NCBI RefSeq assembly: GCF_003334405.1
Contig: NZ_QOWM01000001.1
DNA from: Escherichia coli
GTDB lineage: Bacteria > Pseudomonadota > Gammaproteobacteria > Enterobacterales > Enterobacteriaceae
Length of the DNA stretch: 64,000 nucleotides
Strand: one strand, 5' to 3'
Shown here: in pieces, positions 6,750-6,827 of the stretch
Numbering within the stretch: the first letter of the stretch is position 1
How the letters are laid out: every line of letters begins with the position of its first letter
The notes under the pieces: model-generated
Told to the model about the DNA's origin: nothing
What the model saw: the letters and a program-made list of their open reading frames with translations, nothing else
The model's database searches: none
Program-made: the position numbers and the translations under genes

Positions 6750-6762
6750 AACCTCCCTACAC

Positions 6763-6793
6763 CGGGGTACTGCATTTTTTTTGTAGTACCCCG
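6763..6793. other. stem-loop in elaB-menF spacer (9-bp stem, T8-containing loop) abutting a TATAAT hexamer
   Basis: CGGGGTACT ... AGTACCCCG inverted repeat; loop GCATTTTTTTTGT; TATAAT at 6794-6799, 29 bp before menF. Confidence 0.3.
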
Positions 6794-6827
6794 TATAATG
6801 TGAGGCTTTTAACAGGGAGAGGTCCGC

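Follow-up and report, generated by a model that had tools for sequence, protein, structure and literature searches.

An unusual hairpin beside a TATAAT hexamer is probably where the elaA-elaB message ends and the menF operon begins in Escherichia coli

Dar and Sorek (2018, Nucleic Acids Research 46:6797) described a class of stable stem-loops that lack a U-tract and have the steady-state RNA 3′ end directly downstream. They ascribed such ends to termination farther downstream, often by Rho, followed by trimming by PNPase or RNase II, and considered that some members may be inefficient intrinsic terminators with Rho as a backup. Here, we describe a hairpin that resembles this class in a 64,000-nucleotide stretch of Escherichia coli DNA (contig NZ_QOWM01000001.1, assembly GCF_003334405.1), which we call the window and whose positions are used throughout; the features discussed lie on its plus strand unless stated otherwise. 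The hairpin and an adjoining TATAAT occupy positions 6763 to 6799, in the 78-bp spacer between elaB and menF, and this spacer carries two overlapping signals. We consider it very probable that the hairpin is the terminal stem-loop of the elaA-elaB mRNA and that the TATAAT is the −10 hexamer of the menF operon promoter, with the signals for a 3′ end and for a start overlapping. Both RNA ends are already present, uncommented, in public tables, and the element is of an ordinary kind in a neat and deeply conserved arrangement. The original prediction, made from the letters alone, had singled out the hairpin as unusual and missed that it is an in vivo end of the elaA-elaB mRNA, recorded by two independent methods.

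The sequence from 6763 to 6799 is CGGGGTACTGCATTTTTTTTGTAGTACCCCG-TATAAT. The perfect 9-bp stem, the run of eight T residues (T8, 6775–6782), the TATAAT (6794–6799) and the menF GTG start codon 29 nt past the hexamer were all found as first described, and in RNA the stem extends to 12 bp, including one G·U pair (arms 6763–6774 and 6782–6793), around a 7-nt U loop (6775–6781), with a free energy (ΔG) of −20.9 kcal/mol. The TATAAT abuts the last base of the stem. When a 91-nt region was folded, its stability gave a z score of −4.8, none of 200 shuffles was equally stable, and an outer helix between 6745–6755 and 6802–6813 was added to the hairpin. At 8 distinct loci, the window contains perfect GC-rich hairpins of 9 bp or longer, compared with approximately 2.6 matches in Markov-resampled sequence, and because of these similar loci the hairpin, though non-random, is one member of a common class; the others are at 3498–3529, 22464–22485, 25052–25076, 30719–30748, 37545–37570, 54557–54577 and 56944–56975. 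The specific arrangement GGGTAC-N(8-20)-GTACCC occurs once in the window, where 0.02 occurrences are expected. We found the element in 5,422 of 5,426 complete E. coli genomes, in single copy and at a median of one place per genome. With one place per genome and no second copy in the window, it lacks the character of dispersed repeats such as repetitive extragenic palindromes (REP), bacterial interspersed mosaic elements (BIME) and enterobacterial repetitive intergenic consensus (ERIC) sequences, and a search of the element against Rfam (E ≤ 10) returned nothing relevant.

To read published maps on the window, we used the relation that the MG1655 genome position equals 2387471 minus the window position, the plus strand of the window being the minus strand of MG1655; this was verified against the positions of the elaB stop codon and the menF start codon and against flanking letters given in a published table. 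Term-seq (Adams et al. 2021) reports a “primary” elaB 3′ end at 2380674 on the MG1655 minus strand, which is window position 6797; it appears in three high-scoring entries, and the flanking letters given there match the window exactly. This steady-state end lies 4 nt past the stem, inside the TATAAT (...CCCCG-UAUA-3′). SMRT-Cappable-seq (Yan et al. 2018) gives the same nucleotide, 2380674, as the transcription termination site of full-length capped transcripts that begin at the elaA transcription start site (TSS; 2381565, window 5906). In M9, 30 reads were assigned to the elaA TSS, among which 10 end at 6797 and 16 read through; no read-through read ends in the next 50 bp, and the median extension is 199 nt. 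The 3′-end site is leaky, with approximately 60% read-through in M9 (16/26). Since both start sites have been mapped, elaB mRNA comes from its own promoter as well as from that of elaA. The elaB TSS of Kim et al. (2012) is A6418, 26 nt before the ATG, and is preceded by TCTATAGT (6404–6418), a sigma-S-like −10 with an upstream C. In transcripts that start at the elaA or elaB promoter, the GC-rich hairpin at 6763–6793 probably forms the stable 3′-terminal stem-loop of the elaA-elaB message.

We then considered what kind of 3′-end signal this is. The GC-rich stem-loop of a canonical intrinsic terminator is present, and in place of a U-tract of 7–8 nt the stem is followed by UAUAAUGU, which has 4 U in 8. 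The tail score of UAUAAUGU is −1.64, compared with −5.4 to −7.2 for U-rich tails, and a consensus terminator scan makes no call at the hairpin; the initial judgment that this is not a canonical terminator is therefore borne out. Because UAUAAUGU rather than a U-tract follows the stem, the hairpin is at best a weak and leaky intrinsic terminator. A precise 3′ end at stem +4, beside a stable stem-loop without a U-tract and seen by two methods, is what characterizes a protective 3′ stem-loop, and the hairpin fits this U-tract-less class (a weak terminator and/or an exonuclease barrier) better than it fits a canonical intrinsic terminator. Both the 60% read-through and the short median extension agree with the picture drawn by Dar and Sorek. 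The 3′ end is probably of mixed origin, arising in part from inefficient termination at the hairpin and in part from termination inside menF, possibly by Rho, followed by trimming to the stem by 3′ exonucleases. A mildly C-rich, G-poor stretch inside menF (6918–6995; 32% C, 19% G), approximately 120–200 nt beyond the elaB 3′ end, is a candidate Rho entry region, roughly where the read-through transcripts stop (median +199 nt). A literature search for elaB together with Rho found no relevant content. We also asked whether RNA polymerase bound at the menF promoter might create the 6797 end as a roadblock, and rejected this on geometry, as a promoter complex covers approximately −55 to +20 and a colliding polymerase would halt much farther upstream.

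The second signal belongs to menF. The SMRT-Cappable-seq operon table (Yan et al. 2018), in which we confirmed the relevant column to be the TSS, gives 2380664 on the MG1655 minus strand, or window position 6807 (±1 nt), as the start of menF-menD and menF-menD-menH transcripts; an elaA-elaB-menF read-through species is listed as well. The TATAAT at 6794–6799 has this capped 5′ end 8 nt downstream and, as described below, is conserved across genera, so the suspicion that the hexamer is meaningful proved sound. On DNA, the stem-abutting TATAAT would act as the −10 of the menF operon (menFDHBCE), firing at 6807. The 3′ arm of the hairpin and its T-rich loop occupy the spacer and −35 region of this promoter, and the T8 run, which forms the loop in RNA, falls at promoter positions −32 to −25. 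Downstream are the menF Shine-Dalgarno (SD) sequence AGGGAGAGG (6814–6822) and the GTG start codon (6828–6830), where GG-G and CGTG are invariant across genera. In a 2024 study of the SdiA regulon, luciferase fusions to the menF upstream region were active in Salmonella, Enterobacter cloacae and E. coli. As position 6807 lies downstream of the hairpin, menF mRNA from its own promoter does not contain the hairpin, which disposes, for menF’s own transcript, of the suggestion that the RNA structure occludes the promoter. A consensus promoter scan calls nothing at the site, and the supplements of Ettwiller 2016 contain nothing for the elaB-menF site.

To determine what is conserved, we performed an ElaB-based scan across Enterobacterales, which yielded 80 loci, and aligned the menF-linked module from 31 non-identical sequences representing approximately 15 genera. 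The module consists of a C/U-rich block followed by AAAC-GGGTACTGC-loop-(G)CAGTACCCC-G-TATAAT-GTGAGGTTTTTAAC-AGGGAGAGG-N5-GTG, and it is found in Escherichia, Citrobacter, Salmonella, Enterobacter, Leclercia, Lelliottia, Silvania, Phytobacter, Trabulsiella, Huaxiibacter and others. Its length is nearly constant (87–90 nt, from −52 to the start codon). The hairpin is retained in 30 of the 31 aligned sequences (median ΔG −17.4), and the TATAAT columns T53, A54, T55, A56 and T58 are invariant in all of them. TATAAT or TATACT stands at a fixed distance from the gene in all menF-linked loci, even in genera without the GGGTAC hairpin. In four loci, from Enterobacter sp. (L015), Atlantibacter (L016), Enterobacter pulveris (L020) and Cedecea (L061), the GGGTAC hairpin is absent and a canonical hairpin with a T-run terminator is found directly upstream of the same ACG-TATAAT. 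Because of these replacement loci, what is constant is some hairpin between elaB and the menF −10, and the TATAAT is independent of the GGGTAC hairpin. Where elaB has no menF downstream (Pantoea, many Erwinia and others), it is followed by unrelated hairpins, often canonical ones with a T-run. By the evidence of these natural experiments, elaB requires a hairpin behind it and menF requires a −10 ahead of it; the E. coli type is the compact version, with the −10 standing where a U-tract would be.

Between genera, the loop differs both in its sequence and in its length, and the T8 run is therefore not conserved across genera. In the four replacement loci, the canonical terminator or T-rich run lies 14–16 bp upstream of ACG-TATAAT or ACA-TATAAT, the same place relative to the −10 as the T-rich loop of E. 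coli; because these positions match, a T-run at approximately −27 to −35 is common to both architectures. In Yokenella regensburgei (L066, 2806–2917), the −10/TSS region and the menF SD are set apart by one more perfect hairpin, AACCTGCCTCAGGCAGGTT; this insertion lengthens the 5′ untranslated region by approximately 24 nt and leaves the remaining module intact. In Klebsiella pneumoniae MGH78578, menF and elaA have adjacent gene numbers (KPN_02663 and KPN_02664) and the ortholog table of Kim et al. (2012) has no elaB ortholog, so Klebsiella appears to be without elaB at this locus; a Klebsiella menF TSS is absent from the listing of Kim et al. (2012).

Within E. coli, we counted alleles with 68-nt BLAST queries, for which a single difference brings the identity below 99%, in 5,422 records. 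The window allele (T8, A6785) was present in 4,061 records and an A-to-C change at 6785 (A6785C, also T8) in 1,294, so that 5,355 of the 5,422 records (98.8%) carry an exact T8 allele. The T7 form was found in 12 + 7 records (at most 19) and the T9 form in 11 + 1 (at most 12), the latter mostly from one porcine enterotoxigenic E. coli (ETEC) lineage. T9 is inherited within this porcine group (records H73–H80: UMNF18, ETEC1738, ETEC1748, ETEC4067 and others), which makes it a real lineage variant rather than sequencing noise. The A6785/C6785 difference is the only common polymorphism and forms a natural allele pair bearing on read-through into menF. The comparison of T-tract length across E. 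coli genomes that had been suggested at the outset thus found near-invariance. As for the findings that would have counted against the original prediction, the one concerning an invariant T-tract came true, and the one concerning a menF TSS upstream of the hairpin did not, the TSS at 6807 being downstream. Two further T8 runs are present in the window, at 4025 and 4647.

Several observations weigh against reading the element as an mRNA 3′ end joined to a promoter. On the RNA side, the stem shows little formal covariation: its six lower pairs are the same in every sequence, and only the upper pairs have compensatory changes (for example, column pair 35–43: UG 11, AU 6, CG 2, UA 2). Counted by columns, the pairs speak for conservation rather than covariation, with 75% of cells paired versus 43–51% in slid controls. 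Plain constraint on RNA structure does not explain why the sequence of the arms is invariant. Approximately 24% of E. coli carry A6785C, which breaks the upper-stem pair U6771–A6785; the hairpin goes from −20.9 to −16.6 kcal/mol, a loss of approximately 4 kcal/mol, and no second change makes up for it. The Rho table of Adams et al. (2021) has no entry near the elaB-menF site. On the promoter side, no −35-like hexamer was found: the best match to TTGACA, expected at a spacing of 16–18 bp, is 2/6 at spacers of 17–19, and there is no TG extension. The TSS map of Kim et al. (2012) has no 5′ end at 6807 and assigns to menF, by proximity, 5′ ends inside elaB at 6714 and 6663; the menF TSS accordingly rests on one experimental dataset plus conservation. 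Weighed together with the two mapped RNA ends and the conservation of the module, these points leave the combined 3′ end and promoter as the reading that we favor.

One additional layer, which we regard as possible though on balance doubtful, is that elaB read-through RNA, and no other, adopts a larger fold with the hairpin at its tip, and that this fold hides the menF ribosome-binding region. In E. coli, this read-through RNA is predicted to form three stacked helices. The basal helix (6738–6743 with 6826–6831, probability approximately 0.6; inverted repeat I2) would pair the elaB Ala-Arg codons GCACGC with GCGUGC, which includes the menF GUG; the middle helix (6745–6755 with 6802–6813, probability approximately 0.99) would pair GUUAAAACCUC with GAGGCUUUUAAC, the latter strand including the menF TSS; and the apical hairpin would complete the stack. 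In most other genera, a CUCCCU would instead pair with the AGGGAG of the SD. Transcripts from the menF promoter start inside the fold and lack its 5′ strands, and they would hence be translatable, while on untranslated read-through RNA transcription would tend to stop early within menF; the fold could also be opened briefly by a ribosome that is completing elaB, which would couple the two genes. In keeping with this, the predicted unpaired level of the start region is 0.05 for read-through RNA; it is 0.55 for RNA that begins at the TSS and 0.24 when the upstream sequence is shuffled, and the read-through reads extend by a median of only 199 nt, although such short read-through could equally reflect RNA decay.

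The comparison between species bears on this fold in both directions. Across 34 sequences, the pairing of the upstream region with its own SD/start region came to −19.9 kcal/mol, compared with −14.0 for shuffles and −17.7 for the SD regions of other species (permutation 0/2000), but the sequences are phylogenetically related and the permutation result overstates their independence. Matched changes are seen in several lineages (CCCCUCCCUG:CAGGGAGGGG, CUUCUCCC:GGGAGAAG, CUCCCCCG:CGGGGGAG, ACCCUCCCU:AGGGAGGGU and AAUCCCCUCCC:GGGAGGGGAUU), and the SD is predicted to be unpaired at 0.245 in native sequence and 0.342 with a shuffled upstream region, the native value being lower in 29 of 36 sequences. 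Covariation is weak when counted by columns and stronger per sequence. Column-wise, 13 double-change cells were counted where shuffles gave 7.9 ± 1.9, and the CUCCC:GGGAG core is free of variation. The E. coli SD itself is not predicted to be sequestered (0.52 native versus 0.39 shuffled), the 5′ strand GCACGC is constrained by elaB coding, and the occluded part differs by lineage, being the start codon in E. coli and the SD elsewhere, which makes the hypothesis flexible.

The CCUCCCU block at 6752–6758 is complementary to the menF SD, and most genera conserve a (C)CUCCCU shortly before the hairpin; the E. coli block is instead predicted to form part of the middle helix. Only Escherichia has this predicted helix, AAAACCUC / GAGGCUUUU, and in this genus just 13 nt separate the elaB stop from the hairpin. 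CUCCCU has become CCUCAC or CCUCAU in E. albertii and Escherichia sp. MOD1 (L009 and L010), with better pairing to GUGAGG. Judging by these alignments, Escherichia seems to have exchanged the SD for the +1 region as the pairing partner.

A second alternative starts from the arms. GGTACT and ACCC are invariant in 31/31 sequences, while the loop and the far-upstream flank are saturated with changes. In Pluralibacter gergoviae (L044, 2808–2895), the 3′ arm is decayed and the hairpin has a ΔG of −4.9, and in Leclercia (L013), the 3′ arm is weakened; both retain the 5′ arm GGGTACTGC, the TATAAT and the 9-bp anti-SD:SD pairing CUCCCCCG:CGGGGGAG. As these two keep the 5′ arm despite a decayed 3′ arm, the 5′ arm is conserved independently of pairing. 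This pattern in the alignment points to a second, sequence-specific constraint on the arms, which may be a −35/spacer function of the promoter or a protein acting on DNA or RNA. A specific version, which we consider unlikely, is that the palindrome GGGGTACTGCA-N7-TGTAGTACCCC, centered at approximately −29 and covering the menF −35/spacer, is an operator bound by a dimeric regulator, most simply a repressor. The invariance of both arms across genera and the retention of the 5′ arm in Pluralibacter and Leclercia would suit an operator, as would the response of menF-promoter fusions to SdiA (−105-fold in E. cloacae and 1.8–2.7-fold up in Salmonella). However, GGGTAC and GTACCC are separated by 13, 14 or 15 nt, a variation that a rigid dimer would not easily accommodate, the changes in the upper stem are compensatory in the RNA sense, no matching factor was found, and the RNA 3′ end already accounts for a hairpin at this position.

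The 2024 SdiA study describes genus-specific effects on the menF promoter and defines no site. The E. coli fusion is not regulated by SdiA even though it has the same arms as that of E. cloacae, and we do not regard SdiA as the protein that would bind the palindrome. Other motifs that were considered appear to fail on spacing or key bases: the NarL heptamer TACYYMT, MerR-type spacer operators, the marbox, a sigma-32 −10 (CCCCATNT) and, within elaB codons, a sigma-54 TGGCACG. The TrpR half-sites GTACT/AGTAC are separated by N13 instead of N8.

A third alternative, which we judge very unlikely, is that a stable elaB 3′ fragment ending at 6797 acts in trans as a small RNA, with the single-stranded CCUCCCU beside the hairpin pairing with SD sequences such as that of menF. 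Measured to the strong 3′ end at 6797, the internal 5′ ends of Kim et al. (2012), 6714 with 65 reads and 6663 with 41 reads, would give species of 84 and 135 nt, and no −10-like sequence precedes 6714; these ends may nevertheless be decay intermediates. Positions 6745–6762 are predicted to be unpaired in a 3′-terminal fragment, and the co-variation of the CU block with the menF SD suits pairing in trans as well as in cis. Against this, the 3′ tail is UAUA rather than the U-rich tail preferred by Hfq, no such RNA has been reported, and elaB is unmentioned in the text of the Hfq and ProQ interactome papers that we found. A paper on YdeO lists elaB as induced and says nothing more on it.

Finally, the proposal that T8 is a slippage-prone homopolymer, whose length changes would shift promoter spacing or hairpin stability and so switch menF expression, has next to no chance of being correct: T8 does lie inside the promoter spacer and −35 region, and rare T7 and T9 alleles do exist, with T9 inherited in the porcine ETEC lineage, but the frequent length polymorphism of a phase-variable homopolymer was not seen among the 5,422 records, where T8 prevails, T7 (−21.5 kcal/mol) and T9 (−21.4 kcal/mol) barely change the hairpin, the scattered T7 frequency is compatible with homopolymer sequencing error, and other genera interrupt the run (TTTTTCTT, TTTTTGTT and CTATTTATCG) yet keep the module. 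The T8 run is a loop and a spacer, not a switch, and we reject slippage.

Returning to the terminal stem-loop joined to the menF −10, we see in this locus a sequence oddity that is explained by existing data: one message ends and the next starts within 78 bp. The genes around it are rbn (minus strand), elaA, elaB (6444–6749, with the stop TAA at 6747–6749, as given by the open reading frame list and by RefSeq for an identical E. coli sequence), the gene that supplies the message ending at the hairpin, menF (GTG at 6828) and menD. The spacer is a clean and conserved case of a leaky 3′ stem-loop without a U-tract packed onto a core promoter. Because the −10 box occupies the position of the U-tract, the packing constrains both signals, and the menaquinone operon would owe part of its expression to read-through from a gene that stress induces. 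More speculatively, and we hold this with considerable doubt, the three parts may form a single module: a U-tract-less hairpin, a built-in promoter and a fold that favors translation of promoter-derived menF mRNA, insulating menaquinone synthesis from sigma-S-driven elaB or coupling it to elaB translation, with the invariant arms read by a sequence-specific factor on DNA or RNA. If the fold-back layer is true, it would extend a transposon-type shielding from outside transcription to an ordinary metabolic operon. For annotation, hairpins with “no U-tract” beside promoter hexamers should be checked against 3′-end maps before being called unusual.

Four known systems offer a comparison. The read-through transcripts of the insertion sequences IS10 and IS50 are reportedly inhibited by folding back. 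The menF locus is similar in that the native TSS lies inside the structure, the 5′ strand is present only on incoming transcripts and the region of the ribosome-binding site is covered, as predicted for menF; it differs in that the protected gene is a chromosomal biosynthetic operon below a stress gene rather than a transposase, in that the occluded element differs between genera, and in that for menF the case is one of prediction and comparison. With canonical intrinsic terminators, the hairpin shares a GC-rich stem directly after a stop codon that marks an mRNA 3′ end, whereas it has no U-tract of 7–8 nt, its 3′ end is at +4 and not at +7 to +9, approximately 60% of M9 transcripts read through it and the terminator scan passes it by. 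With sigma-70 promoters that have a consensus −10 and no recognizable −35, the menF promoter shares a perfect and conserved TATAAT and a TSS 8 nt downstream, but its −35/spacer is a palindrome that is also transcribed as the terminal hairpin of the upstream gene. With the protective 3′ stem-loops of Dar and Sorek (2018), the elaB stem-loop shares a stable stem, the lack of a U-rich tract, a precise adjacent 3′ end and sizeable read-through with later ends; its place in the core promoter of the next operon and the invariance of its arms across genera are not features of that class.

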